Source of the DNA: Candidatus Moraniibacteriota bacterium
GTDB taxonomy: Bacteria > Patescibacteriota > Minisyncoccia > Moranbacterales > GWC2-37-73
NCBI GenBank assembly: GCA_003507445.1
Contig: DNVR01000008.1
Coordinates: forward strand, 29,083 to 93,082
Direction of reading: 5' to 3'
DNA length: 64,000 bases
Part shown: piece by piece, positions 1 to 52,992 of the stretch
How positions within the stretch are numbered: position 1 is the first letter of the stretch
How the letters are laid out: the number at the start of each line of letters is the position of its first letter
The notes under the pieces: model-generated
Told to the model about the DNA's origin: nothing
Database searches by the model: none
What the model saw: the letters and a program-made list of their open reading frames with translations, nothing else
Position numbers and translations under genes: made by a program

Positions 1-1
1 C

Positions 2-241: not shown

Positions 242-456
242 CAACACACAAAAGCATAGTGATTTTAAAAAAGGCTCTATCAAGAGCTTTTTTGCTTATC
301 ATTTTTAAAAAATGGCTTAGATAAAGCATTTTAAAGAATAAGGTTCTTAAAAAGTGCATAAAAGTGCTTGACCGCAACGCTTGTTTTTGGTACCATAAGA
401 TCTGCGTCCCAACACCTTGTTTATAACTGGGGCCATTAAATTGTTAAAAATAACTT

Positions 457-1206
457 ATGAGTAAACCCTTGTGGTTTAAAGGAAAAACAGTGCAAAATTG
501 GAAAAGTGATGTTGCACGAATAAAAATTGTCATCAAAAGAAGCAATATTCTTTTTTTTGCTATTGCGCTTGCAGTTTTCGCTGTGTTGACAAGTTTATGG
601 GAAAACCAAACAGTGTCATATGCTAAGAAATATGCTACCAATAATGCAAATATTCAGGTCAAATCTCCCTTGCTTGAAGAACGAGAAGAATTGTTTGGCG
701 AAACTGTCGTTAGTGACAGGCAAGCAATGATTCTTAAAAAAGAACTTTTGAAGCAAACACAAGAAGACGGGAATATAGATTCAGGTCAATTTGCTCAAAA
801 AATATATGAAATAGTCGGAGATGCGCCAATTCGTGAGATGGTGCCATTTATTGCTAAGCGAGATGAAAAAGTGGCAGCATTTTTGGTTGGAATTGCAAAA
901 AAAGAAAGCAGCTTCGGTTTGGCTTCGCCGTCTAAGGATGGGAAGACTTGTTATAATTATTGGGGATATAAGTCATCAGGCGAGCGTGGAACTGCAATGG
1001 GGTATGCTTGTTTCGGTAGCGCTGAAGAAGCCATTAAAGTTGTTGGCGATCGCATTGAAGTTCTGGTTAACAAACAAAGAAACACTCCAGCTCGAATGGT
1101 TGACACTTGGAAATGTGGCACAAGCTGTGCCGGCGACCCCGGAGCACCCAGCTGGACTTCAACCGTAGCATTATATTTTAACCAACTTGTGACTAAAGAA
1201 GGTTAG
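457..1206 (+). CDS. hypothetical membrane-anchored protein (N-terminal TM helix); tandem paralog of upstream partial ORF
   Basis: 249-aa ORF with hydrophobic segment ILFFAIALAVFAVL. C-terminal region homologous to ORF 2..241. Followed by an intrinsic terminator. Confidence 0.55.
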   Translation: MSKPLWFKGKTVQNWKSDVARIKIVIKRSNILFFAIALAVFAVLTSLWENQTVSYAKKYATNNANIQVKSPLLEEREELFGETVVSDRQAMILKKELLKQTQEDGNIDSGQFAQKIYEIVGDAPIREMVPFIAKRDEKVAAFLVGIAKKESSFGLASPSKDGKTCYNYWGYKSSGERGTAMGYACFGSAEEAIKVVGDRIEVLVNKQRNTPARMVDTWKCGTSCAGDPGAPSWTSTVALYFNQLVTKEG

Positions 1207-1226
1207 AAAATACTTTGAATATAAAA

Positions 1227-1257
1227 AACGCTCAACTCTTGTTGAGCGTTTTTTTTG
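1227..1257 (+). terminator. rho-independent terminator (hairpin AACGCTCAAC-TCTT-GTTGAGCGTT plus T-run)
   Basis: Perfect 10-bp stem followed by TTTTTTTT, directly after the stop of 457..1206. Confidence 0.7.
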
Positions 1258-1389
1258 TTTAATCATTGGAGATTCATAAGAAATATGCTATATTTTATTC
1301 ATAAATCAGTAATGGTTGTATTATACTAAAAGTTCGCATAACCTGCAACTTTCAGCACACTATCAAACATTAAGTTCGCATATAAACGA

Positions 1390-1591
1390 GTTCATCTGAA
1401 ATGTCGCTCCGCTACGCTCGCTCCATTTCAGATGAACGCGCGCGCCTGCCGTCGCTGTCATCTGCTGTGTTGCTTCTCCCTACGGTCGTGAGCAAACACA
1501 TCAGATAACAGCGCCTATCCGAAATTTCCCTCGCCCCGACTGCTGTCGGGACTCGTGAAACATCGGATCAGGCGCGCGCGTTCTGCGAAAT
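1390..1591. repeat. GC-rich structured repeat element, copy A (full core ~202 bp)
   Basis: Near-identical to 2791..2992. Contains nested stems: GTTCATCTGAAATG...CATTTCAGATGAAC, CGCGCGCGCCTG...CAGGCGCGCGCG and CCCGAC-TGCT-GTCGGG. GC ~58% in an AT-rich background. Confidence 0.8.
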
Positions 1592-1640
1592 AGCGAAAAA
1601 CATACCTTTATTAATAATTTTTTCAAGCCCTTTTGAAATA

Positions 1641-1676
1641 AAAAAATCCCCCGGTCAATCACCAGGGGACGGCAGT
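1641..1676 (-). terminator. rho-independent terminator for the minus-strand small ORF
   Basis: Hairpin CCCCTGGTGATTGACCGGGG followed by a T-run on the minus strand, immediately after the TGA stop at 1677..1679. Confidence 0.55.
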
Positions 1677-1843
1677 CATCTTTTCAGATTTTTCATCACT
1701 GCGTAGAATGAAGCTGCTGCTCCGCCAACCATTACAAGTGCGAGTAATCCGATTGCAATGGGCTCGTAAATCTTCGGGTAGGATATCGTGGAAACCGTAA
1801 AGAGTGCCGTCCCTACGCCAAAAACAAAAGCATCCCATTTCAT
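1677..1843 (-). CDS. small hydrophobic membrane protein (55 aa), not in supplied ORF track
   Basis: ATG preceded by AAGGAGG with 6-nt spacing. Translation MKWDAFVFGVGTALFTVSTISYPKIYEPIAIGLLALVMVGGAAASFYAVMKNLKR. Terminator downstream. Local GC ~50%. Confidence 0.45.
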
Positions 1844-2077
1844 AAAGAACCTCCTTGAGAGTTGATATTACAACACTTCAATGACTTCCTATCCTACACA
1901 CGAAGTATTGAAATGTCAAGTGGCAATATTTCAAAAGGGCTTGAAAAAATTGGGCTCAAAATAAGGAGTGTATGTTTTTCCGCTACATCGCAGAACAAGC
2001 AATATCTGGCTCAAAAGTCTTGCCTAATATATAATTAAATAAAGGAGTGCAAGATTTTTTCGACCCAAATTTGCCCT

Positions 2078-2192
2078 TCGCTACGCTCGATCAAACTTCA
2101 GATATTGCTAGACGTTCATCTGAAATTTTCCTCGCCCCGACTGCTGTCGGGACTCGTGAAACATCGGATCAGGCGCGCGCGTTAGATGAAAT
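2078..2192. repeat. GC-rich structured repeat element, copy B (internal-deletion derivative)
   Basis: Has the 5' arm (TTCGCTACGCTCGATCAAACTTCAGATATTGCTAGAC), GTTCATCTGAAAT, then jumps to the 3' part TTCCTCGCCCCGACTGCTGTCGGGACTCGTGAAACATCGGATCAGGCGCGCGCGTT. Confidence 0.7.
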
Positions 2193-2255
2193 ACCCAGAA
2201 ATTTCTTTTTTTATTTTAATATTTTTTTGCAATTCATAATTCTTAATACAAACCC

Positions 2256-2630
2256 ATGTTTAATCCAAATCGTCCACCATCAGAACAATTAGAAAATAAA
2301 ATGTTCACTATCGAGCTTAAGGATAATGAGTCCATTGTCGTTAAGGAAATGGAACCAGGTGTATTTAAAATAGTAGATAATAGTATAACAAAAAAAGATG
2401 AGCATCAGATGGCGGGCGAAACATTCATAGGCTTCGGAGAGTGGGATGATGAGGTTGAAGATTTAGATAGTCGTAGTAGCGATGCACGATATTTTGATAT
2501 GTCGGAACATCTCAGATGGGAAGATGTTGAGTTTATTGGTGATGATGAAATAAAGGCGCCATCACTAGATCGGCTGAAGCAAGCGTTGCAACACATAAAA
2601 ATACTTCCTTATAATCCCGAAGATATGTAA
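2256..2630 (+). CDS. hypothetical acidic protein
   Basis: 124-aa ORF between repeat copies. No recognisable motif. Confidence 0.3.
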   Translation: MFNPNRPPSEQLENKMFTIELKDNESIVVKEMEPGVFKIVDNSITKKDEHQMAGETFIGFGEWDDEVEDLDSRSSDARYFDMSEHLRWEDVEFIGDDEIKAPSLDRLKQALQHIKILPYNPEDM

Positions 2631-2748
2631 TTGCAAAATACATTAAGGAAAAAGAAATTTCTGGGTACATCACATAACAAGGCACATGCGGTTCAAAAAT
2701 TTTGCATCTTTTAAAATTAGAGGTGTGCAAAATTTTCTCTCCCAAATT

Positions 2749-2992
2749 TTTTTCGGCTATGCCTTCAGAAAAACTTCAGATATGCCTAACGTTCATCTGA
2801 AATGTCGCTCCGCTACGCTCGCTCCATTTCAGATGAACGCGCGCGCCTGCCGTCGCTGTCATCTGCTGTGTTGCTTCTCCCTACGGTCGTGAGCAAACAC
2901 ATCAGATAACAGCGCCTATCCGAAATTTCCCTCGCCCCGACTGCTGTCGGGACTCGTGAAACATCGGATCAGGCGCGCGCGTTGTGCGAAAT
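2749..2992. repeat. GC-rich structured repeat element, copy C (full, includes 5' arm)
   Basis: 2791..2992 nearly identical to 1390..1591. The 5' arm CCCAAATTTTTTTCGGCTATGCC...CTTCAGATATGCCTAAC is shared with copies B and D. Confidence 0.8.
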
Positions 2993-3443
2993 GCATGTTT
3001 TCCTTTTGGGCTAACGCCCTGGCTCAAAAAAGAATCCGATTTTGTTTTTTCTTTATTTTAAAGAGGGGTTAAAAAGGTGTTTTTCTGCTCTTTGGGGAGC
3101 AGAAAAATTATACAAAAATTATACATATTGATTTTATTTATAAGCCATGTTAACTTATTATTATCAGTTAAGAATTTGTTTGTAGATTATGTTCTTTGTA
3201 TCAATTGATGTTATCCCACAGAAAGGAGGAAACTGCTTATGCGGAAGCTTATTGTGCTGTGCGCAGTTGTAGCTCTGGCTTAGAGACCATACCGATTTGG
3301 CCGGCGTCGTCGCCCGGCCGCCAGAGAAACATTCGCCCCCGATTCAAGAAACGGAAGAACCGTCATGGTGTAACCGTGGATTCTTGAATTGGCATAACCG
3401 ATAAACCGCCAACAAATGGATATACCCCCAAGGAGGTAATACC

Positions 3444-3542
3444 ATGACGACCAGCCGTGGACGACCTGTTTTCGCTCAGATGATCAAGGGAGAAGAAGCT
3501 GCCGGCAAGGTGAAGAAAGCCGAAGGTACAGCACTGGTCTAG
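3444..3542 (+). CDS. micro-ORF (32 aa) with consensus SD inside a GC-rich island
   Basis: AAGGAGG-7nt-ATG. Encodes MTTSRGRPVFAQMIKGEEAAGKVKKAEGTALV. Strong terminator 80 nt downstream. GC ~55%. Confidence 0.25.
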   Translation: MTTSRGRPVFAQMIKGEEAAGKVKKAEGTALV

Positions 3543-3622
3543 GACCGTGAAGTGGCCGGCCTCGTCCTTCCGGCCAAAATGGGGAAAGATAATCGTCAAC
3601 CGGACATCATGTCCATAACCTG

Positions 3623-3658
3623 ACCGCTCTCGGCATTGCTGAGAGCGGGTCTTTTTTT
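3623..3658 (+). terminator. rho-independent terminator
   Basis: ACCGCTCTC-GGCATTGCT-GAGAGCGGGT followed by TTTTTTT. Confidence 0.7.
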
Positions 3659-3863
3659 ATTTGCCACCCCAATAAATACCACGTATAATTACCAATAAGG
3701 AGTATTGGCTCCAGGCCATTCACCCTTAGCCCCTCTTCCCAAAACAAAGACGAAATTCAATTAATTCATTACAGAAATGCTATTCCTCTGCTGAGGAATG
3801 AAAAGAAAAAACAAACATCGCACAACAACGAGTATCCGGTTTCGACTTTTTCGAAAGTCTTCA

Positions 3864-3948
3864 CCCAAATTTTTCTTTCGCTATGCTTGGTCAAACTTCA
3901 GATACTGCTAGACGTTCATCTGAAATGTCGCTCCGCTACGCGCGTTCG
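3864..3948. repeat. GC-rich structured repeat element, copy D (large internal deletion)
   Basis: 5' arm, GTTCATCTGAAATGTCGCTCCGCTACG, then CGCGTT. Shares its 5' arm with copies B and C. Confidence 0.6.
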
Positions 3949-4052
3949 GAAAAAAACTAAAAATTTCCTCTCTATTTTGAAAAGAATTTTTTGGCAATTT
4001 TGTTCGGTCGAACTAATTTTAAACAATTCAAAAAATTAATTTTAAAAACAAA

Positions 4053-6172: not shown

Positions 6173-6416
6173 GATTGAATAATAGAAAGAAAATTAAGAA
6201 GTTAGGTTCGCCAAAATACGTAAAAGTTTATATTTCTAAAAAGCGGAATCAAGGGATTTCGCTTTTTGTTATGGATTTTTTGGTGTATAATGAATGTATA
6301 AAATGATCAATGAGCAGTTTTCAATTTTCATATAAATTAATAATTTTCAATTTGAAAATTAAAAATATTGAAAATTAAATGAAAATTGTGAATTGTAAAT
6401 TGAAAATTGTTAATCT

Positions 6417-7337
6417 ATGTCTTGGATTTTTGTTGCAGTAAGCGCATATTTTTTGGGAGCCTTTGCGGTCCTGATGGACAAGTTTCTTTTGGGCTCCAAA
6501 AGAATTTCTTCTCCGCAAGTGTACACTTTTTACGTGGGAATTTTTGGATTGGGCGCATTTCTTTTTGCGCCGTTTGGTTTTGATGTTCCTTCTGCTTGGC
6601 AGATCACAATAAGTTTTATTTCGGGAGCAATTTATATTGGCGGAATTTTTGCGCTCAATCTTTCAATCAACAAAGCTGAAGCAAGCAGGGTAACACCTGT
6701 TGTTTTTTCGGTTGTGCCGATTGCGACATATTTGATATCCTTTGTTTTTAATGATGAAAAACTGACACTCATTCAGATTGGTGGAGTCGCATTGCTTATA
6801 ATCGGTGGACTGCTCATTTCTTTTGACTTGCCGCTTAAATTGAACAAGAGAAAATTTTTTGTTGGCTTTTATTTTTCTTGTTTGGCTGGAGTGCTTTTGG
6901 CAATTTCATATGTGATGTTTAAGATGGTTTATGTTGAGCAAACATTTTTAAATGGATTTATGTGGACCAGAGTTGGCGGTTTTGCGGCTGCACTTTTGCT
7001 TTTGATTGTTCCGACTTGGCGCAAGGCTATTTTTAAAAGTTTTTCTCATGCTAAAAAACCTTCAAAGGAACATATTGGCACGGGAGGAATATTCATTGCA
7101 AATAAGATCCTGGGCGGAACAAGTTCTATCTTGCTCAATAAGGCTTTTCAGTTGGGAAGTGTGACATTGGTCAATTCGATGGTATCGCTCCAATATGTGT
7201 TTGTGCTTATTCTCGTGGCAATAGCAGCCAAAAAACATCCGAAAGTTTTTGAAGAAAAGTTGTTGTTTTGGGATTGGGCTCAAAAAGTTGTTGCGATATT
7301 AATCATTGCAATAGGGATGGTTTTAATTTCAAGATAG
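6417..7337 (+). CDS. polytopic membrane protein, EamA/DMT-superfamily-like transporter
   Basis: 306 aa with ~10 hydrophobic helices in two halves. No ATP-binding motif. Confidence 0.45.
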   Translation: MSWIFVAVSAYFLGAFAVLMDKFLLGSKRISSPQVYTFYVGIFGLGAFLFAPFGFDVPSAWQITISFISGAIYIGGIFALNLSINKAEASRVTPVVFSVVPIATYLISFVFNDEKLTLIQIGGVALLIIGGLLISFDLPLKLNKRKFFVGFYFSCLAGVLLAISYVMFKMVYVEQTFLNGFMWTRVGGFAAALLLLIVPTWRKAIFKSFSHAKKPSKEHIGTGGIFIANKILGGTSSILLNKAFQLGSVTLVNSMVSLQYVFVLILVAIAAKKHPKVFEEKLLFWDWAQKVVAILIIAIGMVLISR

Positions 7338-13238: not shown

Positions 13239-13350
13239 TTGAATTTCGAATTTCGAATTTCGAATTTCGATTGAATTGTGAATTGATTCAAAATTTAATC
13301 ATTGAAATATTGGAAATTGATTCAAAATTTAAAATTTAAAATTTAAAATT
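13239..13350. repeat. heptamer-array element: (TCGAATT)x4 - ~50-bp spacer - (AAAATTT)x4
   Basis: Fills the infC stop to rpmI start interval exactly. Same architecture as the in-frame insertion in recG (50867..50967). Confidence 0.8.
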
Positions 13351-13909: not shown

Positions 13910-14040
13910 CGTGGTGGTCTTGCTTATTCCGCTTTATGTAAAAGTGGAAAAGGACGACATTAACTTTAATTTTTTCATATAACATATAGCATATAACATG
14001 AAACACAAAACAAAAATGTTATATGCTACATGTTACATGT

Positions 14041-14452
14041 TGTATATATGGTGGAGTTGATGGGAATTGCACCCATGTCCAAAATTGACAATCCAAAATC
14101 CTCTACAAGTTTAGTTTATTTTTTCTCACCGAAGCGAGTGCGACTAATTAGAGTAGAGAATAAACAAAACCTCTAAATGCCGTTTTCAGAATTATTTCGC
14201 ATTTTGTGTCCAAAAAACCACAAAACACTATTCTCATGTTTGACACCGAGGTCTGCTTACGAGAAATCAGCAGTTCGATGGCTTCGAGCCTAAGCTAAAG
14301 CAGGTGAAAAACCAGCAAATGCTTGCGCAAATGTAGCTTTCGCCTTTGATATGAAGTTTGCACTTATATCTTCGCCACACTTTTTACGATACAGCAGCGG
14401 TGATCGACTTGCATATTTTGAAAAGTACAACCTGTCGAAACTAAACAACCCC
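14041..14452 (-). ncRNA. ssrA: tmRNA (ssrA)
   Basis: Minus-strand 5' GGGGTTGTTTAGTTTCGACAGG matches the tmRNA 5' consensus. 3' end reads ...GGACATGGGTGCAATTCCCATCAACTCCACCA with encoded CCA. Acceptor pairs 7/7 including the G3-U wobble. Adjacent to smpB. Confidence 0.75.
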
Positions 14453-14629
14453 CGGCCGCAACACTCTGTAAGGGTTGAGTGCGGGGAATGTCAATTTATT
14501 TTCGTGTGCGGAATTTCCAAATCCCAATTTCCAATTTCCAATAAAAATTTAAATTACAAAATGTCCAATAATAAACAATACCTTTGGCATTAAAAGTTGG
14601 AAATTTTGTTAGAAATTAGATATTGGTAA

Positions 14630-15100
14630 TTAGGAATTTTTCATGGCTCTTCCTATTTCTCTCTCACTCTCTCTTTTGGTGATGTCTGAGCGCTTGTCGT
14701 GAGCCTTTTTTCCGCGCGCTACAGCGAATTCCAACTTAACTAGGCGTCTCTTAGTATACACACGAAGAGGTACTAATGTCAAGCCTTTTACGTGTAATTT
14801 TCCAATCAGAGACTTGATTTCTGACTTTTTGACCAAAAGCTTGCGAGAGCGTGTCGGATCGTAGGCTATTTTAAAGCCAGCGAAGGGATAATGTGAGATG
14901 GTGGCGTTAGTAAGGTATAATTCTGAATCGTGAATCGTGACAAAACTGCCCTTGAGGCTTATGTGCCCCATTTTTGTTGATTTTGTTTCCGCCCCAGACA
15001 GCACTAAACCAGCCTCATATTTGTCGAGAAGCTCGTAGTCAAAATGCGCTCTTTTGTTGGTTGCTAATGTTGGCATATTCCTATAATGCCTTAAAATCAA
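14630..15100 (-). CDS. smpB: SsrA-binding protein SmpB
   Basis: 156 aa; LVLSGAETKSTKMGHISLKGSFV and YDPTRSRKLLVKKSEI typical of SmpB. Confidence 0.85.
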   Translation of the reverse strand: MILRHYRNMPTLATNKRAHFDYELLDKYEAGLVLSGAETKSTKMGHISLKGSFVTIHDSELYLTNATISHYPFAGFKIAYDPTRSRKLLVKKSEIKSLIGKLHVKGLTLVPLRVYTKRRLVKLEFAVARGKKAHDKRSDITKRESEREIGRAMKNS

Positions 15101-15735: not shown

Positions 15736-17121
15736 ATGACTAAAAAAAGCCAAAAAATTGAATTGCTTGCGCCGGCGGGCTTGTCCGCCAAAGCCATTAA
15801 AAATACTGATAATTTGAAAAGTGTAAAAATTTTGAAAAAAAGAGAAGATAAAATTGAATTACTCGCGCCGGCGGGGAGTCCGGAAAAATTGAAATATGCC
15901 ATCAAATATGGGGCAGATGCTGTTTATTGTGGAGTCCCAGATGTTTCAATGCGCGCTCGCGTGAACACTTTTACTGAAAAGGATCTTTTGGAAGCGGCAA
16001 AATTTGTTCACAGTGAGGGCAAAAAAATATTTGTAACTTTGAATATTTATGCGCATAATTATCATTTGTCAAAAATAGAAGCGCATTTAAAATTTTTGAA
16101 AAAAGTTAATGTCGATGCTGTTATTGTGGCTGATCCGGGAGTGATTATGCTGGTCAAAAAGCATTTGCCAAAAGTTGCCATTCATCTTAGCACTCAAGCC
16201 AACACGACAAACTGGCAAGCAGCAAAATTTTGGTATGACCTTGGCGTGACAAGAATCGTTTTAGCCAGAGAAGTTACACTGGAGGATATTACTGAAATAA
16301 AAAAACATGTACCAAAATTGGAGTTGGAATATTTTGTGCACGGAGCAATGTGTATGAGTTATTCCGGACGTTGCATTTTGAGCAAATGGATGAGCAACAA
16401 AAGTGCAAACCTTGGAGATTGCACGCAACCGTGTAGGTGGGGATACAGGCAAAAGTCGAAAGTCGAAAGTTTAAAGTCTAAAGAAATAGAAGAATATAAA
16501 ACAATGGAGGTTGAGGAAGTTCAGAGTGGGCGGCCGGTTTTGTTGGAGGAGGATTCTCACGGAACATATTTTTTCAACAGCAAGGATTTGAACTTGCTTT
16601 CGCATTTGCAAGAACTTCGTAGCGCGGGCGTGACGTCGTTTAAAATAGAGGGGCGCAATAAGAGTGTGTTTTATGTGTCCAACGTTTGTAGGGCCTATAG
16701 GAGCGTTCTGGATGCAATCGAGACCAAAAAAACAGCTCCGGAGGCCAGAAAAATTCAAAAATGGGCAGCAAAAGAATTGGATAAATTGGCAAATCGTGGC
16801 TATACCAAGGGTTTTTTGCTTGGAAACGAGCCTGAGCACGGTTTTTCCGGTCAACAAGGGGGCAATGAGTTTCAATTTGTGGGAGAAATCCTAGAAGTTA
16901 ATGGCAGCGAACTGACTGCAAAAATTCATAATGTTGTAAAAGCTGGAGACAATTTGGAGATTATAGATAAGAAAAAAAACATTGCCATTAAAATTTTGAA
17001 GATTTACAATCAAGACAGAGAAGAAGTTTCCTCGGCGCACGGCGGTCACGGCAAATTGTATTTTTTGAAAGTAAACAAAAAAAATATCCAGCCGTATTCA
17101 TTGCTGAGAAAAATAATTTAA
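15736..17121 (+). CDS. U32-family peptidase (collagenase-like / RlhA-TrhP family)
   Basis: ELLAPAGSPEKLKYAIKYGADAVY N-terminus and HGAMCMSYSGRC motif. N-terminal 32 aa are an in-frame direct duplication (IELLAPAG twice). Confidence 0.75.
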   Translation: MTKKSQKIELLAPAGLSAKAIKNTDNLKSVKILKKREDKIELLAPAGSPEKLKYAIKYGADAVYCGVPDVSMRARVNTFTEKDLLEAAKFVHSEGKKIFVTLNIYAHNYHLSKIEAHLKFLKKVNVDAVIVADPGVIMLVKKHLPKVAIHLSTQANTTNWQAAKFWYDLGVTRIVLAREVTLEDITEIKKHVPKLELEYFVHGAMCMSYSGRCILSKWMSNKSANLGDCTQPCRWGYRQKSKVESLKSKEIEEYKTMEVEEVQSGRPVLLEEDSHGTYFFNSKDLNLLSHLQELRSAGVTSFKIEGRNKSVFYVSNVCRAYRSVLDAIETKKTAPEARKIQKWAAKELDKLANRGYTKGFLLGNEPEHGFSGQQGGNEFQFVGEILEVNGSELTAKIHNVVKAGDNLEIIDKKKNIAIKILKIYNQDREEVSSAHGGHGKLYFLKVNKKNIQPYSLLRKII

Positions 17122-28882: not shown

Positions 28883-29031
28883 GAACTGCAACCCCAGTTA
28901 AATACTGCGGAGTACCGCAATTTAACGGGGTAAACATACAACATACAACAAAATACAGAATACAAAACATATAACATATAGCATGTAACAAATAGATACT
29001 AAATACTAAATACTAAATACTAAAAAAACTT

Positions 29032-29736: not shown

Positions 29737-29785
29737 GGGTTAATAATTTCTAATTTCCAATTTCTAATTTCCAACAAAAAATCAA

Positions 29786-30166
29786 ATGTCAAATGATAAA
29801 AGGATATATGATTTGGAGGAACGTACGGAAGTATTTGGTGAGAATATTATTGAATTTTGCAAAATAATTCCAAAAACAGCATTAACAACCGTATTGACGA
29901 ATCAACTTTTGCGATCAGGGACTAGCGTGGGAGCAAATTATTGCGAAGCGGATTGTGCTGAATCAAGAAAAGATTTTGAACATAAATTGGGAATTTGTAA
30001 AAAGGAAGCCAAGGAAACAAAACATTGGCTTAGGATGATTGCAAAAGCTGCACCTGAAATTAAAAGTGAAGCGCAAATATTATGGAAAGAATCAAATGAG
30101 CTGCAGTTAATATTTATTGCGATTATTAATAAGTCAAAAATAAATGAAGCAGAGAAGAAAAGATAA
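29786..30166 (+). CDS. four-helix-bundle protein (23S rRNA intervening-sequence protein family)
   Basis: LRSGTSVGANYCEA ... KDFEHKLGICKKEAKETKHWL matches the conserved core of the family. Confidence 0.65.
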   Translation: MSNDKRIYDLEERTEVFGENIIEFCKIIPKTALTTVLTNQLLRSGTSVGANYCEADCAESRKDFEHKLGICKKEAKETKHWLRMIAKAAPEIKSEAQILWKESNELQLIFIAIINKSKINEAEKKR

Positions 30167-30241
30167 GTTTGGAAATTATATATTGAAAATTTTGTTAGAA
30201 ATTGGATATTAGAAATTAGTAATTAAACGAAGTATTCTCTG

Positions 30242-33200
30242 ATGGGTGTAATCGGAATAAGGAAAAATATAAAAAGCAAAAATTGGGGACTGAAAATTAT
30301 TTCAGCGTTTTTTGCTTTGAGTTTCTTTTTTGTGGCTGTCGCTTCAGCTGAAGTCGCTCCAACAATCTCTGAAATTTCTCCAAATAATGGGTTGCCAGAG
30401 GGTGGAACAAGTGTGACGATAACTGGAACAAATTTTTCTCAAAGTACAATAGATGCAAACACGAAATTGTTGATTCAAGGTAACGGCACAGGTGCAAGCT
30501 TCGTTGATTCTGAAATAACCCCAAAGACAGTTACCGCTGTTGGAAATGTCACCCAATCTTCTGCGCAGTCAAAATTTGGAGGATCAAGTGTTTATCTTGA
30601 TGGAAATGGCGATTATTTGTCTTTAGCGGACAGCGAGGATTGGGCTTTTGGCACAGGAGATTTCACAATGGATATGTGGGTTAAAACAACCGAATCTGAT
30701 GGTTTCTTGCTTTCTCAGATGCCTTCAAATGGTGCAGCGGGAGTTGCTAGTTTTTATTCAGTTGTGAGTGTGGATGGAAAAGTTATTTTTGTTCCTGATT
30801 ATGTTTCCTACCCAAGTCATCACACTATAACATCAACAGTTTCTGTTAATGATGATGCTTGGCATCACATCGCATTTGTTAGGAACGGCGCATATATAAG
30901 AATGTATATTGATGGAACAGAAAGTGGCACAGCTTTAAATATGGGCGCTGGTTTTACTATGACAAATTCTGCTGAACTTTTGAAAATAGGTAGCATTGGG
31001 CTTCCAGAAAATTACAGTCCTTATGGTGGGTATATTGATGAAATCCGTGTTTCCAAGGGGATTGCTCGCTGGACCAGCAATTTTACACCTCCATCTTCTG
31101 AAAATCATTTGCAATCAACATTAACAATCGGTGGAACTTCTGCCACAAATATTGCAGTTACAAGCCCAACTACAATTACCGCCACAACTCCTGCTCACGC
31201 TGCGGGTGCAGCTGATGTAGTGGTTACAAATTACGACGGTCAATCTGCAACACTGACAAGCGGATATACTTTCAATGCTGCTCCAACCATTTCTGCAGGA
31301 GCTGTTACTCCAGCGAGTGCAAAACTTACGGGTGGCGACACAATTACAATTACAGGATCTGGTTTTTATGGAACTCCAAGTGTAACTCTTGGTGGAACAG
31401 CTGCGACTGCTGTTACAGTAGTAAATCCAACCACAATCACCGCGACAACCCCAGCACATTCTGTTGGTGCTGTTGATGTTGTGATTACAAATGAAGATTC
31501 GCAAAGCGCGACACTTGCAAACGGATTTACATTCACGGAACTTCCACCGACAGTTTCAGGAATTTCTCCAAGTGCTGGTTCACCTGCTGGCGGAACAAGT
31601 GTGACGATAAGTGGAACTAATTTTTTGGTTGGAGATGTTGATACATACACTAAAGTGTTGCTGCATGGTGATGGCACGGGAGCAAGCTTTGTTGATTCTG
31701 AATTAATCCCAAAAGTAGTTACAGCAGTTGGCAATGCTACTCAATCTGCTGCGCAATCTAAATTTGGAGGGAAAAGTATGTATTTTGATGGGAGTGGTGA
31801 TTATCTTGATTTGGCAACCTCTGCTGATTTTGGTCTCGGCACAGGTGATTTTACTGTGGATTGTTGGGTAAATTTCTCCACTGTAACTAATGCAATATTT
31901 GTGAATACCACTAGTTCAGCAAATGGATTCTTTTTTCAATACTATAATAATGCTTTTACTTTTGGTCAAAATAATGTAGGTTTTGTAATTAATACACCTT
32001 GGACGCCTTCTATAAACACTTGGTATCACATAGCAGTGACAAGGGCGAGTGGCACAACCAAAGGCTTTATTAATGGAACGCAAATAGCATCTGTTAGTGA
32101 TAATTATAATTACGCTAACAATATATTGCGCGTAGGTGAAAGCGTTAATGGTTATCTAGATGAAGTCCGTGTTTCAAAAGGGATTGCTCGTTGGACTAGT
32201 AATTTTACACCGCCGTCTGCTGAATATCACTCACAACCAATGTTAACTTTTGGCGGAATCTATGCTACAAATGTCGCAGTCACAAACCCAACTACAATTA
32301 CCGCTACAACTCCTGCTCACACTGCAGGTGCAACTGATGTTGTCGTCACAAATTACGATGGACAAAGTGCAACACTAACAAGTGGTTACACTTTCAATCC
32401 TGCGCCAACAATTTCTGCTGGAGCAGTTTCTCCAGCCAGTGCCTTGAAGACAGGAGGCGACACAATTACAATCACGGGAACAGGATTTTATGGCACACCT
32501 ACCGTAACTTTGGGAGGAACAGCTGCGACTGCTGTTACAGTAGTAAATCCAACCACAATCACCGCGACAACCCCAGCACATTCTGTTGGTGCTGTTGATG
32601 TTGTGATTACAAATGAAGATTCGCAAAGCGCGACACTTGCAAACGGATTTACATTTACAGAACTTCCATCAACAGTTGGATCAATTTCTCCAAATAATGG
32701 AACTGTTGCAGGTGGAACCAATGTGACGATTACGGGGACGAATTTTATTGAAAACAGCGCAACAGGTGGAACGATTACAACCTCTGGAGAATATACAGTG
32801 CATACATTTACAGGAAGTGGAACGTTTGTGCCGAATAATGAGATGGATGTTGAGGTTTTGGTTGTTGCTGGCGGAGGTGGAGGTGGAGGTGGAGAACCTA
32901 GTGCTGGCGATTCTGGTGGTGGTGGAGGAGCTGGAGGATACAGAACTGCAAATCTTACAATATCATCAGAATCTCATAATGTGACTGTGGGTGCTGGAGG
33001 CGCAGGTGCAGCAGGAACATCTTTACCAGGAAATAAAGGGAATGATTCAATTTTTGATTCCATAACTGCAGCAGGTGGAGGTGCTGGTGGAATAGAGGGC
33101 GGAAGTGGTGGAGCTGGAGGATCTGGAGGTGGAGCTGGAGGTCTCTGTTCAGTTCCAGTTTCAGGAGGAGCAGGTAATACGCCAGCAACGACACCAAGTC

Positions 33201-36200
33201 AAGGAAATAATGGAGGATTTACACCCGGGACAACTTGTTCTGGGCGAGCTGGTTCTGGCGGTGGTGGTGCTGGCGGTGTTGGAGGTGCAGGAACCACTGT
33301 TAGTGGCGCTGGTGGTGCGGGCGTAGCAAGTGATATTACCGGAACTTCTATAACAAGAGCTGTTGGTGGTGCTGGCGGACAAAGCGGCAGTGGAACAGGT
33401 ACAGCAGGAGCTGCAAACACTGGAAATGGTGGAAAAGGAGGAGGAATAAGTTCTGCTGGTGGTGCAGGAGGAAGCGGTGTTGTTATTGTTAGATATTTGA
33501 CCCATAAACCAGTAGTTACCATCGGTGGAACTTCTGCTACAAATGTCGCAGTCACAAGCCCAACCACCATCACTGCCACAACTCCCGCACATACCGCAGG
33601 CACAGCTGATGTGGTGGTTACGAATTATGACGGACAATCTGCAACGCTGACAAATGGATACACTTTCAATCCTGCGCCAACAATTTCTGCAGGAGCAGTT
33701 TCTCCAGCCAGTGCAAAACTTACTGGAGGCGATACAATCACAATCACTGGAACGGGATTTTATGGCACACCTACCGTAACTCTTGGAGGCACAGCTGCGA
33801 CTGCTGTTACAGTAGTAAATCCAACAACAATCACTGCGACAACTCCCGCACATTCTGTTGGCGCTGTTGATGTTGTTATTACAAATGAAGATTCTCAATC
33901 CGCAACTCTTACCAATGGATTCACTTTCACAGAACTTCCACCAACACTAAGTTCAATTTCTCCTGATAACGGTCCAGTAGCAGGGGGAACTAATGTGACG
34001 ATAAGTGGTACGAATTTTGTCGCTGGGTCTGTAAGTGCAATTGGCGGAACAATAACAACTGATGGTGATTATACGGTACACACATTTACAGGTAGTGGAA
34101 CATTTACAGCTGATAGTGATATGCCTGTGGAGGTTCTGGTTGTTGCTGGTGGTGGAGGTGGCGCAGGAATGGCTGAATCTGGTGGAGGTGGAGGAGGTGG
34201 AGTGCAACATCATACTTCATGGCCAATAAATGCTGGTGCAAATTATAGTGTTGTAGTTGGAAATGGTGGTTTAGGTGCTACAAGTGTTTCAAATGGTGCA
34301 AATGGTGCAAATTCATCTTTTGGCGAATTGATTGCTAATGGAGGTGGTGGAGGAGGTGGATTTATCGGTTTAACTCCAGGATCTGGAGGTTCAGGCGGTG
34401 GATCTACGCGAGGAGTTGCTGCAGGATTGAGTAATCAAATTTCAATTAATGGTTCAAATTCTTACGGAAATCCTGGAGGTGTTGGATGGCCAAGTGGATA
34501 TACGGCTGGAGGTGGTGGAGGTGCTGGTTCTGCGGGAGGAAATGCTACTAGTGGAGTGTATCCAGATGGAGGTGTTGGAGGTGCTGGAAGAGCATTTGAT
34601 ATTTCAGGAACATCAACATATTATGCTGGAGGTGGTGGAGGAATTTATGCTTATGGTGGTATTGGTGGTGGAGGCAATGGTAATATGGGAACAGTTGAAT
34701 CTTATAATGGTGTGGCTAATACTGGAGGTGGAGGAGGTGGAGGAGCTAATGTAGTTGGAGGAGATGGTGGTTCTGGAATTGTAATAGTGAGATATTTGAC
34801 AAAGGCTAAATTGCCAACCGTAATAATCGATGGAATTGCAGCTACAAATGTTTCACTTGTGAACCCAACCACAATAACAGCAACCACTCCTGCTCACACT
34901 GCAGGTGCAACTGATGTTGTCGTCACAAATTACGATGGACAAAGTGCAACACTAACAAGTGCGTTTGAATATCACAATTGGATTACGGCAGGAACGTATA
35001 CCTCAACAGTTAAACCTCTGGCTAATGTTGGATTTGGAAACATTGATTGGGTTGCTGGCACGCCTGCTAATACTAATTTGACAATGCGAGTAAAATCTTG
35101 CACCTCTGCTGATTGCAGCGACAAACCAAGTTGGTCTGGATGCGACTTGGCTGCGCTGGACAATGGTACCGATATTTCCGGTAAGGGTTGTGTGGTGGAT
35201 GGCCAAGGTTATGTTCAATATCAAGCATATCTTTCAACTGATTCAAATTCTGCTCAGCCATATCTCGACAGCGTCACAATTTCAACTCAACCAGAATATT
35301 CCAAAACATTTTTAAGTCTCATTTCTTCTCCTTTTGATACGGGAAATGAAAGCAACAGTGTTCAAAAAATTTCTTGGACTGCAACAAATGACAACTTGGC
35401 AACTCAGGGACAAGTGGCAATACAAATTCGAACTGCACCGGATAATGGCGGAATTCCTGATTTTACAAATTCAGTTTGGTGTGGGCCGACTGATTGCAGC
35501 GGCACAACAAATTCAACAACAGCTTTTGCAATCAGTTATTACACTGACAAAACAGGGGCTCTTGCGATAAATGCAATTAACAAGGATCTTAGTGATGATC
35601 GTTGGATTCAATATGCAACATTCTTGAAATCAGCTGATGGAACTTTGACTCCGACATTGACTGATGTGACGATGCAATATGCATATAACACTCCACCAGC
35701 AATTACAATTGACAGCAACCCAATATTTTTAAAGCAAAATGCAGATGGAACTTTCTCTGTTCCATACACCTTAAGTGAAACTTATGATGATTTTGGTAAC
35801 ATTCCTCACGGAACAGCTGGTTCTCCGATTAAAGCACTTCTTTTTTATCAACCGAAAAATGACATCACAATTGAAGAACTTACAAATGTTCGAACAGGAA
35901 TTGTCACCCTCAATAATCCAAGCAATCTTCCAATTCCATCGCAAGGTTCAATGCTGATTGGCGATGAGTTGATGACTTTTGATTCAGTTGGAGCAACTGG
36001 AAATCAAAGAAACATCACAGCGCGTGGAATTGCTTTTGCAACTTCATATCCAACCACGGCTGCTGCACACTTGGCAAATTCCGCAGTATTTTTTGCAACT
36101 TCAGCTTCGATTCAAACAATCGATACGCTTGTTGAGACGGGCATAGTTGGCGCTGAGGCATCCGTATCAAATATGTTCTCTTGGAATCCAAGAACTGATG

Positions 36201-39200
36201 TCAATACAAATTTGAATGGTAACAAACTTTCAGACGTGGTTTTCAAAGTTGCTGCCAACGACGCTGATTCAACCAACATTAATAATATCGGACAAAGCAG
36301 TGCGACCACTTCGCAAGTTCTGGATTTGGAATCTCCTTTGATTAAAAATGTCACTTCATCTTCGGCTGATGGGAAATATAACGCTGGAAAAAATGTGGAC
36401 GTCACGATTAATTTTGCTGACAGTCTTGGCAACGCAAAGAATGTGACTTCAACAGGCGCTGTCACGATAGTTTTGGAAACTGGCGTTAATGATTATGAAT
36501 GCTTGATCCCATCTATCACAAACGCATCAAGCGCATCTTGCACATATCAAGTCCAAACAGGCGATGTTAGCGAAGATCTAACTGCAATTTCTGTAAGCGG
36601 AACAATTAAAGATCAATTCCAAAACACTCTTTCAAACTTTGCGATTCCAGCAGGACAAAACATTGCTGATTCAAAAGCTATTGTTATCGATACAATTTCT
36701 CCAATCATTTCAGGTGTGTCGCCAGCAGCAAGTGCGTTTGTAAATTCAATCACTAGCGCTAATGGTGGCTCTGATATTTCGTATGAAGCGACAGAACTTT
36801 TAAAAACAGGATCATATGTTAAATTCACTTCAACTTCGGGAACAGATTTGAACACCGAATATCTTTGCACTTTGCAGGGAACAGCACTTGAGGTTGGCGT
36901 GCACAGTGGTTTTGAAATCAAACAAGATGCAAACAACTGCACTGAAGTTCAAAGCGCGCTTCAAAGTGGTTCTGTTTATACAATGACAATTCACGCCATT
37001 GACGAAGCTGACAATGCCAGTGACCAAACAATTGCAAATATTAATTTTGACACAACCAATCCGACAGCTAGCGTAACTTCCCCATCAAACGATGCCTTTT
37101 TCAACAGCATTACAACTGGCTCAGATGTTTCATATAATCTTGATGAACAGTTGCAAGCAGGCAGTTATCTTAAATTCACTAGAACTGCTGGTAGCGCTGA
37201 TGGATCTTCTCCGCGAACTTGTAATTTGACAGGGACTGAGCTTGAAGAAGGTGATCATAATAATGTGGACTTGAACGCTGTCTGTGGAGGATTTGCTTTA
37301 GTAGATGGTGCAGTTTATTCAATTGATCTTTTCGCTAAGGACTTGGCTGGAAATGAGGCAAATGCAACACAAAAAACAAATGTTACTTTTGACCAAACTG
37401 CTCCAACACTCAACTCATTTACTTCAGACAAGGCCAACAACACGCCAGCTACAGCTTATGGCGCAGGGGAAGTGATTGATATTAAGGCGGTTTACAGCGA
37501 ATCATTGGCAGTTGGCTCAACAATGACAGTTAGATTGGAAAACACAGCAACGCCCGCTGTTGATGTTGTGCTCGATCAAATTGCTGGAAATGTGCTTTCG
37601 GGAACATTTGTTGTGGACGGTCCGCGTAAGGGATATGACACGGCTGATTTGACTTTGCGATCAATTGTTTCTCAAAATGCTATCGATCAAGCTGGCAATG
37701 TTAAAACTGATTCGGCGATACCGTTTGGACAAAACTTAGGAGACAACAAAGACATTGCGATTGATACAGGAACTCCAATTCTGGAAAGTTTTGCTGCTCA
37801 AAAACTTCCTGAGAATTCAACAAGCGGTTCTTACAAAGCAGGAACGGAAATAAAAATAACCGCGACATATTCCAAACCAATTGCCTCTGGCGAAATCACG
37901 CTGCATCTTAATACTCAAAATGGAGCTGAAGACATTGAAAACATTGTATTGTCAACAATTTCAGGTTCTACAATTTTCGGCACACACACTGTGCAAAATC
38001 TGGACAACGCTGAAGACTTGAAAGTTTTTGCCATCACTGCTCAAAGCGTTACTGACTTTAAAGGTAATGTGCTTGATAGAACAGGAACAATGACTGAATA
38101 TGACGCATATTTCACTTCGCTTGTTGGCGAAAACATTTCTGCTGTTACAAATATTTCCAATTTCAAAATTGACACAACTGCGCCAACACTTGGAGCAACG
38201 CCAATTGCCATTGCAAATGTCGCAGGAAAAACTAGCAGTGCAACCCCAGTGATAACATTGTCTGCAACTGATAATGATATTTCTAAAGCAATCTTCTCAT
38301 TGGATGGGGGAACTTCTTGGTGTGCTCCAATTGATTATGGTGCAACAATAAACACATTTGACATTACATCTAGTGCTTGCGGTGGTTCTGCTTCCAACGA
38401 AGTAAAAACTGTCACAGTCAAGTTCAGCGATGTTGCTGGCAATGAGAGTGCAACTTCCAGCGCTTCAGTTGAATATGATAATTTGAAACCACAGTTGCAA
38501 ACAATTACTGCTGATGTGGTCGGCGGAATCTATGGACCAAATTCAGTTATTAAAATCACTGCAACATATGACGAAGACATTGCCAGTGGAACATTAGTTG
38601 TCAATCTTAACAATGGAAAGCAGCTTACGATTAATACTGTCGAAACGGCCAGAACACTGGTGGCAAATTATACTGTTGGCGCAACTATTAGTGGCGAAGA
38701 CACAAGCGCGCTTCGTGTAGCTGCAATTGTTTCGCAAGCTGTTTCTGATTCAGCTGCCAACACGCAAGACGGAACCAGTCTGGCTGGAATAACTGCCAAC
38801 ATCGACACTGATAAAACAATTATAATTGATACTACTGCGCCAAGCGCTGCTGCGCCAGACGGCTCGATTGTTGCTGACAGGGCAAGCGAAGAAAACAAAA
38901 TAAAAATTACAATTTCTCCTGATGATTGGGGTGTGGCAAAGGATGAAATGACCGCTCAAATTGCGCTGATGGACACGGTGGTTGCTTGCAACTTTACTGG
39001 CGCAAATGCAGCAGTCTTCAACAGTGAATTTCCAAAAACATTTACATATGATGACCTTGCAGGCGCAGTGAAAAAAGTTTGTGTTAAATTGACTGACAAG
39101 GCGGGGAACATTTCTTCTGATTTCAGTGTGGTCACTCCAAACACTCCTGAAAATTTCGTGTATACTGATCTTACCAGCGCGACGTTTACAGGTGCGATTT

Positions 39201-49815: not shown

Positions 49816-52038
49816 TTATTCAAGGTGGATATTTTGTTGGAATTTGTTGAGCTCTTTTTGTAGGAGTGGGTAGTCTTTCAAGTCGGGGCTGTTTTGCAAA
49901 GTTTGCTCGGCGTAGTCGTGGGCGATTTCAATCAGTTTTACGTTCGACAAATGCTCCATTGCGATGTCGGGAAGACCTGATTGGCGCGTGCCGAGAAATT
50001 CGCCGGGACCACGGAGTTTCAAATCTTCTTCTGCAATTGCAAAACCGCTGGATGTTTTCTCCATTGCACTAAGACGTGATTTTGCTTTGACGGTTTTGCT
50101 GCCAGTGAAAAGAAAACAATATGATTGCTTGTCTGATCTGCCGACTCGTCCACGAAACTGATGAAGTTGAGAAAGGCCAAATCTTTCCGTATCCTCGATC
50201 ATAATCACAGTGGCATTTGGAATATCAATACCAACTTCTACCACGCTGGTGGCAACCAAAATGTCATATTTTTTATCTTTAAAATCGGCCATCACTTGCT
50301 CTTTTTCGCCAGCTTTCAATTTGCCGTGCAGAAGTCCCAATTTTAAATCTGGAAAAATTTCCCGTGACAGTCGTGTATGCTCTTGGGTGGCAGCTTTAAG
50401 TTCTGTTAATTTTTCTGATTCTTCCACTAGAGGGAAAATGATGAAAGCCTGATGGCCCTTGGAAATTTCTTTGCGCACAAAATCATACACATCTTTTCTT
50501 TTGCTTGGCAAAATAATTTCAGTGAGAATAGGCTTTCGATTTTTGGGCATTTCATCCAACACTGAAATATCCAGATTTCCAAAAAAAGCTAAGGTCAATG
50601 TTCGGGGAATCGGAGTTGCTGTCATCGTGAGCAGGTGGGGAATTTTTCCTGGCAAGCCGTCATTAATATCAGCAATCTGCTGTTGCAAAAAAGCACGTTG
50701 AGCCACGCCAAAGCGATGTTGCTCATCGATGATTATTAAAGCTAAATTTTTAAATTTTATATCTTTCTGAATAAGCGCGTGAGTACCTATTACAATGTTA
50801 ATATTGCCAGACACTAGTTCCGATAGTAATTTTTTTCTAGAAATATCCTCTTTTTTTTCTGCTGATAATTTTGAATTTTGAATTTTGAATTTTGATTGAA
50901 TTTTTAATGTTTTAATTTTTAAACATTCATCATTAAGATTTGATTCGAAATTCGAAATTCGAAATTCTGATTTATTAATCAAATGATAGGAATTCGTTAA
51001 AAGTCCTACAGTTATGTCTTGCTTTGAAAATATTTTTGATATACTTTCAAAATGTTGCTTGGCCAAAACTTCTGTTGGAGCCATAATGGAAACCTGAAAA
51101 CCAGCATTAATGGCTGACAAGCTCGCCATTGCAGCCACAATTGTTTTGCCACTTCCCACATCGCCATTAAGCAGACGATTCATTGGAAGAGGTTTTTCCA
51201 AATCTTTCAAAATTTGAAATGCAGCTTTGCGTTGAGCATCAGTGAGTGTAAAAGGAAGTGACTCGACGAAATATTTGGTCAGTGTTTCATTGAAAGCAAT
51301 TGAAACAGCATTTTGTTTGTCCCATGAAATTTTGACTCGCTGAGTTGCAAGTTGTACCAAAAACATTTGCTGAAAAGCAAAACGTTTTTGCGCAAGTTCA
51401 AATTCTTTGAGCGTTTTTGGGAAGTGTAAAGATTTTACAGCTTCACTCAAGATTGGCAGATGCAAACCCTTCAAAATATTTTCTGGAATTGGGTCAACAA
51501 GCGCATCGGCATATTTGATCATATTTTGCATTTGCCAGCGAATCCATTTTGAAGTGAGGCCTTCTGTTTCTGGATATATTGGAACAAGCCGTCCTGTGTT
51601 GGTTGGGGTGCGCGAAGAAAGTTCCCAAGCGGGATTGGAAAAAAACATTCCTTTTGCATCTTGCGAGATTTTTCCAGCTAGTCTCACGCCTTTGCCGGCA
51701 GTGAGCGAATCACTGACATATGGTTGGTTAAACCACACAGCTCTCACAGTGCCAGTTTCATCACTCACAAAGCACTCTGTGATCATCATCTTCTTTTTCC
51801 AAGTGCGCACCAATTTGCTTTGTACAACTTCTCCCATCACAGTGGCCGTTTCTCCTTCTTGAAGATTTTCAATCAAAACCCGCTCGGAATAATCTTCATA
51901 GCGAAAAGGGAAGTGCAGCAAAAAATCCTCCACAGTTTCAATGTTGAGTTTTTTTAAAATCGCGCCATATTTCATCCCGATACGCGGCAGTTTTTCCAAT
52001 TTCATCTTCAAAAAATCCATACCTAAATTATAACTCAA
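49816..52038 (-). CDS. recG: ATP-dependent DNA helicase RecG, carrying an in-frame repeat insertion
   Basis: Walker A GDVGSGKT, DEQH box IIDEQHRFGV, motif VI QFRGRVGR, N-terminal wedge/OB region. Inserted segment NFESNLNDECLKIKTLKIQSKFKIQNSKL encoded by 50867..50967. Confidence 0.85.
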   Translation of the reverse strand: MSYNLGMDFLKMKLEKLPRIGMKYGAILKKLNIETVEDFLLHFPFRYEDYSERVLIENLQEGETATVMGEVVQSKLVRTWKKKMMITECFVSDETGTVRAVWFNQPYVSDSLTAGKGVRLAGKISQDAKGMFFSNPAWELSSRTPTNTGRLVPIYPETEGLTSKWIRWQMQNMIKYADALVDPIPENILKGLHLPILSEAVKSLHFPKTLKEFELAQKRFAFQQMFLVQLATQRVKISWDKQNAVSIAFNETLTKYFVESLPFTLTDAQRKAAFQILKDLEKPLPMNRLLNGDVGSGKTIVAAMASLSAINAGFQVSIMAPTEVLAKQHFESISKIFSKQDITVGLLTNSYHLINKSEFRISNFESNLNDECLKIKTLKIQSKFKIQNSKLSAEKKEDISRKKLLSELVSGNINIVIGTHALIQKDIKFKNLALIIIDEQHRFGVAQRAFLQQQIADINDGLPGKIPHLLTMTATPIPRTLTLAFFGNLDISVLDEMPKNRKPILTEIILPSKRKDVYDFVRKEISKGHQAFIIFPLVEESEKLTELKAATQEHTRLSREIFPDLKLGLLHGKLKAGEKEQVMADFKDKKYDILVATSVVEVGIDIPNATVIMIEDTERFGLSQLHQFRGRVGRSDKQSYCFLFTGSKTVKAKSRLSAMEKTSSGFAIAEEDLKLRGPGEFLGTRQSGLPDIAMEHLSNVKLIEIAHDYAEQTLQNSPDLKDYPLLQKELNKFQQNIHLE
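50867..50967. repeat. heptamer-array element inserted in-frame within recG
   Basis: (AATTTTG)x4 - spacer - (CGAAATT)x3 on the + strand. On the coding strand, same architecture as 13239..13350. Confidence 0.75.
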
Positions 52039-52895: not shown

Positions 52896-52992
52896 ACATA
52901 ACACGTATCATAGAACATGGAACAAAAAAAATCAATAGATTACGCACTTATTACATTTATGCTCTATGTTTTATGCTATATGCTATATGACC

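Follow-up and report, generated by a model that had tools for sequence, protein, structure and literature searches.

The recG gene in the stretch of Candidatus Moraniibacteriota DNA analysed here (64,000 nucleotides of contig DNVR01000008.1, hereafter the window) carries an in-frame palindromic insert whose arms are tandem arrays of 7-bp units. The insert would be a miniature copy, without an open reading frame (ORF) of its own, of a dispersed palindromic element that has inverted arrays of 7-bp units as arms. This element probably landed in frame in a permissive loop of the first RecA-like domain of the RecG helicase. We consider, with a probability of roughly 0.7, that it is a selfish or neutral element, which is tolerated owing to the permissive loop, an orientation free of stop codons and a length divisible by three. 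Because of that orientation and length, the copies would simply be translated. The product would be a disordered surface loop of about 40 residues rich in Lys, Asn and Ser. Most likely, the element contributes nothing to RecG and persists as a harmless passenger.

Position and anatomy of the insert in RecG

The minus-strand ORF that holds the insert was identified as the RecG helicase from the ORF list and from Pfam, which matched RecG_wedge, DEAD (split into two stretches), Helicase_C and RecG_dom3_C. The N-terminal wedge domain is present (RecG_wedge, E=3.9e-22, residues 19-175). The start of the gene is probably the ATG at M7 (position 52020) rather than the listed TTG, because the database protein is 734 residues long and, in a related locus (L010), a stop codon precedes the equivalent ATG. 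The top sequence match in the PDB was RecG of Thermotoga maritima (1gm5, E=6.8e-152). Residues 20-348 aligned to residues 123-452 of 1gm5, and residues 401-710 aligned to 460-760. Since positions 348 to 401 of the window protein correspond to 452 to 460 of 1gm5, about 45 residues are extra. The alignment with E. coli RecG placed the insert as the alignment with 1gm5 did. Orthologues without an insert have 21-24 residues in this segment, against 64 in the window RecG.

An earlier note on this DNA had described a low-complexity insertion encoded by heptamer arrays. This description held, since the quoted peptide, KSEFRISNF...DISRKK, was found exactly in the translation, period-7 arrays were reported by Tandem Repeats Finder (TRF), and the extra residues against 1gm5 were confirmed. 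Its position had to be corrected in two respects. The insert occupies residues 356-403 rather than about 335-385, and it does not separate the wedge from the helicase core but lies within RecA-like domain 1, past motif Ia and ahead of motif II (DEQH), where it splits the Pfam DEAD domain (267-347, resuming past the insert). It is preceded by a strand that follows motif Ia and ends in LLTNS, and it is followed by the helix KKLLSELVSG, then IGTHAL and the DEQH of motif II.

On the coding strand the insert reads (GAATTTC)x3.6, GAATCAAATCTTAATGATGAATGTTTAAAAATTAAAACATTAAAAATTCAATC, (AAAATTC)x4 (Table 1). A further TRF row of period 7 covers 50867-50919. The two arms form an imperfect inverted repeat of 49+49 nt with 71% complementarity (50867-50915 and 50918-50966), about 100 nt in total. 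When the arms pair, every heptamer unit includes one C.A mismatch if the sense strand is folded and one U.G wobble if the antisense strand is. The predicted RNA folds were -17.5 to -19.2 kcal/mol for the sense strand and -30.8 to -35.9 kcal/mol for the antisense strand, and the sense fold was modestly better than those of shuffled sequences (z=-2.2). Perfect arrays of at least three copies at period 7 occurred five times in the window and not once in 50 shuffles, and at other periods they were virtually absent. The RecG insert holds two of the five. The TRF output for the window holds about 30 period-7 rows. When the 31-nt core of the spacer was searched in the window with up to three mismatches, it matched itself only. 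The Rfam scan of the window at the gathering threshold returned the transfer-messenger RNA (tmRNA) and three tRNAs only, with nothing in recG and no rRNA. A promoter and terminator scan of 50600-51200 gave no site inside the insert. An intein or an intron was also considered and was rejected: no intein motifs were present, and strict conservation of frame and orientation would be needless if the segment were excised.

Table 1. Coordinates of the RecG insert, its relatives and other repeat-associated features of the window
Feature	Position	Strand	Remarks
RecG ORF as listed	49816..52038	-	TTG start, 740 aa
Probable real recG gene	49816-52020	-	ATG at M7, 734 aa
Insert-encoding DNA	50830..50973	-	Exact peptide location; not present in RecG of Thermotoga maritima or E. 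coli; pLDDT <50 at residues 358-395
5' arm (mRNA strand), (GAATTTC)x3.6 perfect tandem array	50943..50967	-	TRF period 7, 100% matches
Spacer between arrays	50896..50942	-	Subterminal motifs GAATCAAATCTTAATGA ... CATTAAAAATTCAATC; small central palindrome AATGTTTAAAAATTAAAACATT
3' arm (mRNA strand), (AAAATTC)x4 perfect tandem array	50867..50895	-	TRF; imperfect complement of 5' arm
Sister element, (GAATTTC)x4 - spacer - (AAAATTT)x4, intergenic	13241..13350	+	TRF; aligned with RecG insert
Long-form related element	29740..30225	+	Inverted heptamer arrays around PF05635 ORF
Left arm of long form, (AATTTCY)x4	29744-29771		Arms 93% complementary, 427 nt apart
Right arm of long form, (RGAAATT-like)x4	30195-30225
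PF05635 ORF of long form	29786-30166		126 aa; Pfam E=1.6e-14
In-frame heptamer array (AAAGTCG)x4.6 in peptidase U32 gene (15736-17121)	16452..16483	+	TRF; translated as QKSKVESLKSKE
Inverted heptamer-array hairpin, other units	6302-6418		In spacer
Inverted heptamer-array hairpin, other units	13976-14041		In spacer; beside tmRNA gene
tmRNA gene	14049-14452	-
Inverted heptamer-array hairpin, other units	14512-14638		In spacer; between tmRNA gene and smpB
Inverted heptamer-array hairpin, other units	28933-29024		In spacer
Inverted heptamer-array hairpin, other units	41468-41586		In spacer
Inverted heptamer-array hairpin, other units	52956-52989		In spacer
Inverted-repeat pair	1616-1951		25-nt arms, 100% complementary, 286 nt apart
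Inverted-repeat pair	2181-2678		30-nt arms, 87% complementary; around 124-aa ORF (2256-2630) without Pfam match
Giant ORF	30242-41353		3703 aa; GC-rich part at 32800-34800

The earlier note had also raised the idea of a pseudogenisation step. A decaying recG, or an insert created by faulty assembly, would be conceivable because the insert is inside the catalytic domain and assemblies of metagenome-derived genomes can mis-join repeats. However, the frame is open. In an alignment of 62 orthologues including the query, helicase motifs I, Ia, II, III, V and VI, as well as TRG, were intact and invariant, with GDVGSGKT, APTE..QH, DEQHRFG, ATPIPR, QLHQFRGRVGR and RGPGEF.G.RQSG as invariant columns. 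Structural modelling also gave a normal RecG fold. The AlphaFold2 model, built on the 62 orthologues, had a mean predicted local distance difference test (pLDDT) score of 77, and its top Foldseek match was RecG again (1gm5_A, E=1.6e-47). The disordered loop of the model, residues 358-395, had no secondary structure and was the only part of the insert with pLDDT below 50, while the strand (344-347, 352-355) and the helix (401-410) beside it were confident. Furthermore, the identical 734-residue protein of Candidatus Moranbacteria (P0001) is recorded on eight contigs from NCBI, JGI and ENA, and homologous in-frame inserts are found in independent assemblies and are kept in orthologues down to 62% identity. 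Therefore, the window RecG is an intact gene and not a pseudogene, and decay or artefact is very improbable. Since the motifs and the modelled fold are untouched, the enzyme most likely still works. The term essential-type, which the note had applied to this helicase, was overstated. RecG is conserved, yet E. coli can dispense with it.

A family of inverted heptamer-array elements

The insert is one member of a family. A sister element, directly after the stop codon of infC and upstream of rpmI/rplT (the ORFs on either side match IF3 and L20 in Pfam), aligns end to end with the RecG insert. In this copy, the strand bias of fold stability is opposite to that of the RecG insert. Metagenomes were then scanned with the pattern GAATTTCGAATTTC-N45-75-AAAATTYAAAATTY, and 43 contigs matched with the same architecture as the RecG insert. 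An open frame of 120 codons or more spans the element in 24 of them, and every one of these copies has the same orientation as in RecG. Pfam matched domains both before and after the element in the hosts that it confirmed, which are CoaBC, TsaD, two GT4 glycosyltransferases, a radical-SAM protein, LepA and Lgt. Some single proteins of the Candidate Phyla Radiation (CPR) contain two or three separate segments of heptamer elements, all in frame, namely a TsaD, a GT4 glycosyltransferase and an O-antigen-ligase-like protein (L090, L105, L104 and L114). The pattern GAATTTCGAATTTC was not found in 80 genome-contig loci, which were mostly RecG genes of other species and thus little informative. The stronger folding of the antisense strand among the metagenome copies (mean -30 against -19 kcal/mol for sense) was rejected as independent evidence, since the scan pattern GAATTTC ... 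AAAATTY itself imposes the C.A / U.G asymmetry; the set of RecG orthologues, treated below, is independent of that pattern.

The restriction to the sense orientation can be explained by the codons. An array of at least three heptamers runs through all three reading frames, with a cycle of 21 nt. GAATTTC and AAAATTC are free of stop codons in all frames, but every frame of the complement (GAATTTT)n has TGA. Only the sense orientation is therefore stop-free, and copies inside genes are found in that orientation only.

Longer relatives carry a gene between the arrays. The long form in the window encloses an ORF of the PF05635 family (23S_rRNA_IVP, a four-helix bundle). This cassette sits between a TPR-protein gene and the giant ORF. 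Another locus, L112, holds a PF05635 gene 59% identical to that of the window, and there the gene is flanked by the same FE-type arrays as in the RecG insert. The L112 cassette and the RecG insert also share subterminal motifs, ...GAATTTCGAATTTCGAATCAATTTTAAATGA on the left and AAATCATTGGAATTTCAATCAAAATTCAAAATTC on the right. Because of these common arrays and motifs, the RecG insert would relate to the L112 cassette as a miniature inverted-repeat transposable element (MITE) relates to its parent element, but the cargo is not a known transposase. Since GAATTTC/AAAATTC arrays also surround GC-rich spacers in GC-rich contigs (L081, L082, L086 and L109), it is apparently the arrays rather than the spacer that are conserved in the element, and these seem to occur outside AT-rich CPR genomes as well.

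A second in-frame array of the window lies in a peptidase U32 gene. The Pfam match there spans 254 residues against 230 profile positions, about 24 more. No inverted partner of this array was seen. Because the PDB search with the host protein gave no match, this second insertion is read from the Pfam coordinate offsets. Its heptamer, AAAGTCG, also occupies the RecG loop of L009 (SESRKSKVESPK).

An array without a partner raises the question of whether replication slippage in an A/T-rich linker could have produced the RecG insert locally, with no pre-existing element inserted. The genome is indeed AT-rich (37% GC around recG), and the arrays expand and contract in place, as the differences among the window and loci L010, L124, L125 and L127 indicate. 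However, slippage does not yield two inverted arrays with shared subterminal motifs, the same ends recur around the PF05635 gene of L112 and in unrelated genes, and the enrichment is specific to period 7. A local origin is thus quite unlikely, and the insertion of a dispersed element is preferred.

Other repeats of the window are given in Table 1. The tmRNA gene is bracketed by two of the hairpins in spacers, with the units CATATAA/ATGTTAC and AATTTCC/TTAGAAA. The region 1-4000, where two inverted-repeat pairs are found, has a higher GC content of about 0.41-0.43. In the giant ORF, the GC content of the GC-rich part rises to 0.50, with Gly-rich tandem repeats of 9 nt and 6 nt (GGAGGT, TGGAGGAGG).

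Turnover of the RecG loop among orthologues

The loop was compared among 120 RecGs of Moranbacteria and Parcubacteria with 58-100% identity. The segment from LLTNS to the conserved G-x-I (residues 350-413 of the query) varied from 21 to 65 residues with a median of 40, and that of the query has 64. About 13 of the 120 have no insert. The other 107 or so have extra sequence of at least seven unrelated repeat types. These include the AATTTY heptamer family (peptides FE, FQ and FK), CAAGAAT (QESRIKNQ), TCAGTWA (VISNQ...LMTDD), CAACTGA (QLTTDN), CATGGAA (HGAWNMEHG) and two non-heptamer palindromes, CHSGLDPES...RFRGNDK and CHPERSEGS...QNDS. The arrays and palindromes were borne out by the DNA of related loci.

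The element type of the window was found in orthologues down to 62% identity (L010, L124, L125, L127 and L128), where the hairpin is kept and the unit of the left arm is changed. Both unit and copy number of the arrays differ among the window, L010, L124, L125 and L127. In L010 the left arm has turned into AATTTTG, which complements the right-arm unit CAAAATT exactly. In a 92%-identical strain (L126/P0003), 27 residues were lost from the inside of the hairpin, and the perfect palindrome GAATTTCGAAATTC is left. Such changes in length and unit may have arisen by array slippage, deletion across the hairpin, correction of one arm by the other, and replacement by or recombination with other loop alleles. 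The length of the insert thus varies between strains and species, which the earlier note had proposed to check, and orthologues with an ordinary linker of the same length, which the note had named as refuting evidence, were not found. Its suggestion that a mobile repeat is tolerated here also gained support from the sister copy, the 43 metagenome contigs with about half of the copies in frame in unrelated housekeeping genes, and the PF05635 relative.

The window and L010 were compared at both the nucleotide and the amino acid levels. Outside the insert the gene is 75-78% identical in nucleotides and 84-85% in amino acids. The values for the insert are 80% and 62.5%, and those for a core of 22 codons are 91% and 82%. 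Because nucleotide identity of the insert and its core is high relative to amino acid identity, whatever constraint there is on the insert acts on the DNA and not on the peptide. A functional cis-element would fit such a constraint. The insert could then serve as a site for RNase III, as a pause in translation or as a structure on the antisense strand that controls recG, with the peptide as a by-product. In addition to the conserved nucleotide core, the hairpin potential is kept in orthologues from 62% to 100% identity, in eight of ten RecG orthologues the antisense strand folds far more stably than the sense strand (-36 against -19 kcal/mol in the window), and 23S rRNA intervening sequences are known to contain related PF05635 cassettes (PMC10053308). 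On the other hand, many orthologues have no insert or unrelated ones, so that a conserved regulatory role in recG is not required. The same element type is found in many unrelated genes and spacers, the fold of the sense strand exceeds shuffles only modestly, and neither a promoter- or terminator-like site nor an Rfam match was found in the insert. A regulatory function is therefore unlikely, and a passenger element remains the favoured explanation.

A stronger challenge comes from the distribution of loop types. When the orthologues were clustered with the loop left out, neighbours only 2-8% apart held unrelated loop contents. For instance, P0111 has no insert and its near neighbour P0115 has the palindrome CHSALDAES..RFRGNDK; P0014 and P0016 differ as well. 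In the clade of the query alone there are five loop states (FE, FE-deleted, FK, FQ and CAACTGA). Therefore, the loop is a real hotspot of insertion or replacement, or a site of allelic exchange. Elements may be actively directed to it, by recognition of an existing hairpin, a heptamer remnant or a DNA structure, instead of arriving by chance and being sorted by selection. The share of orthologues with extra sequence and the variety of unrelated classes argue for such targeting. TsaD behaves alike, since L090 and L105 have different heptamer types at one site after HIEGHI. It also fits that the uninserted S-Y-Q-L-T could be encoded as TAT CAA CTG ACN, which contains one CAACTGA unit; this is a back-translation, for which the DNA of L003 only was looked at. 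However, no recombinase or target motif was identified. Identity of the flanks to L001 and L002 falls over codons ~321-350 and ~400-420, which fits some recombination, and allelic recombination of whole loop alleles would explain these dips equally well. Inserts also occur at other RecG sites (residues ~427, 453-465 and 576-587), as expected for permissive loops under selection. Targeting is thus possible but doubtful, and it is compatible with the identity of the insert as proposed here.

One of these other sites, residues ~453-465 of the query, appears to be a second insertion hotspot of RecG. In four orthologues (P0070, P0077, P0080 and P0086) a whole domain of about 140 residues, PF13366 (GxxExxY, PD-(D/E)XK), is present there in frame, between motif II (DEQH) and motif III (TATPIPR), and the proteins are 837-856 residues long. 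P0054 and P0091 have short repeat-like inserts at the same place.

Several observations weigh against a chance insertion of a tolerated passenger. Random insertion followed by selection poorly explains why unrelated element types are found in exactly this loop at 2-8% divergence. No direct repeat that could be a target-site duplication was evident beside the window copy and 37 distinct metagenome copies, in which degenerate outer units blur the boundaries. No transposase was found either, as long copies with the same ends encode only the PF05635 four-helix-bundle protein. The element is consequently called mobile on account of its distribution. The spacer differs greatly between copies, and the arrays could in principle have arisen repeatedly rather than by copying. 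Both translation of the insert and its function are deduced from conservation of the frame. Finally, the LLTNS segment is presumably the positional counterpart of the 'GG' loop by which DEAD-box helicases contact nucleic acid, and by this analogy an influence of the insert on DNA binding by RecG is possible.

Comparison with known repeats and significance

The closest functional analogue of the RecG insert seems to be the Rickettsia palindromic elements (RPEs). RPEs are palindromic repeats of ~100-150 bp that are dispersed in a small genome, lie in frame in many unrelated housekeeping genes and are apparently translated into additional peptide segments that the proteins tolerate (PMC10969869). 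The present element likewise lies in frame in several unrelated ORFs (RecG, CoaBC, TsaD, GT4, radical SAM, LepA and Lgt). However, its host belongs to Candidatus Moranbacteria of the CPR, its arms are 7-bp tandem arrays and not unique sequence, its spacer is highly variable, its long form has a PF05635 gene, and one protein loop is occupied by many element types. Because the host taxon differs, membership in the RPEs is unlikely, and the likeness would be one of analogy.

The element also resembles MITEs in being small and ORF-less, with terminal inverted repeats, many dispersed copies and a longer relative with the same ends. MITEs, however, have a cognate element that encodes a transposase, and the longer relative here encodes an Avd-like four-helix-bundle protein instead. 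Its inverted repeats are, moreover, arrays that evolve in place. A third comparison is with short tandemly repeated repetitive (STRR) sequences, whose canonical units are CCCCAGT, TTGGTCA, CAACAGT and TAACTGA. The units of the window insert, GAATTTC/AAAATTC, are not among these. Such heptamer direct repeats, found in Cyanobacteria, Beggiatoaceae and Bacteroidetes, are tandem 7-nt units, mostly intergenic and of obscure origin (MacGregor 2015, PMC4679880). Tandem units of 7 nt and enrichment at period 7 are common to both, and a CAACTGA/TAACTGA-like array was seen in the RecG loop of L003 only. In contrast, the arrays of the window insert have other units, form inverted pairs able to fold into hairpins, lie inside coding sequence and belong to another phylum.

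The fourth comparison is with 23S rRNA intervening sequences, which are excised at their stems. The RecG insert is evidently kept rather than excised, as judged from the conserved frame. The related long copies resemble intervening sequences in that an inverted-repeat stem encloses a PF05635 ORF. The RecG insert differs from them, as it lies in the coding region of an mRNA and has no ORF, and the window has no rRNA gene. PF05635 proteins are homologous to Avd of diversity-generating retroelements and have been recorded in these intervening sequences (PMC10053308). In the limited collection of literature searched, no relevant description of palindromic, MITE or heptamer elements of CPR/Patescibacteria was found.

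The finding would extend the phenomenon of selfish DNA inside genes from Rickettsia to the Candidate Phyla Radiation. It suggests that, in a very small genome, the ATPase domain of a core DNA-repair helicase can harbour a selfish hairpin that is translated. The link between ORF-less hairpins and PF05635 cassettes may offer a handle on how PF05635 genes, a large family whose function is not established, are spread. Since the content of the RecG loop changes much more quickly than the remainder of the protein, the loop can be used to mark strains and, as a natural experiment, to study how insertions are tolerated. The finding also carries a warning for annotation, because CPR proteins contain repeat-derived peptides such as EFRISNF, KFKIQNS and CHSGLDPES. 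More tentatively, inverted heptamer-array hairpins, with or without PF05635 (Avd-like) or GxxExxY (PF13366) cargo, might constitute an undescribed class of CPR mobile cassettes that recolonise the same permissive loops of housekeeping proteins by a structure- or repeat-directed mechanism. If this is true, loops such as residues 350-400 of RecG would be hypervariable landing pads that keep supplying new peptide segments.

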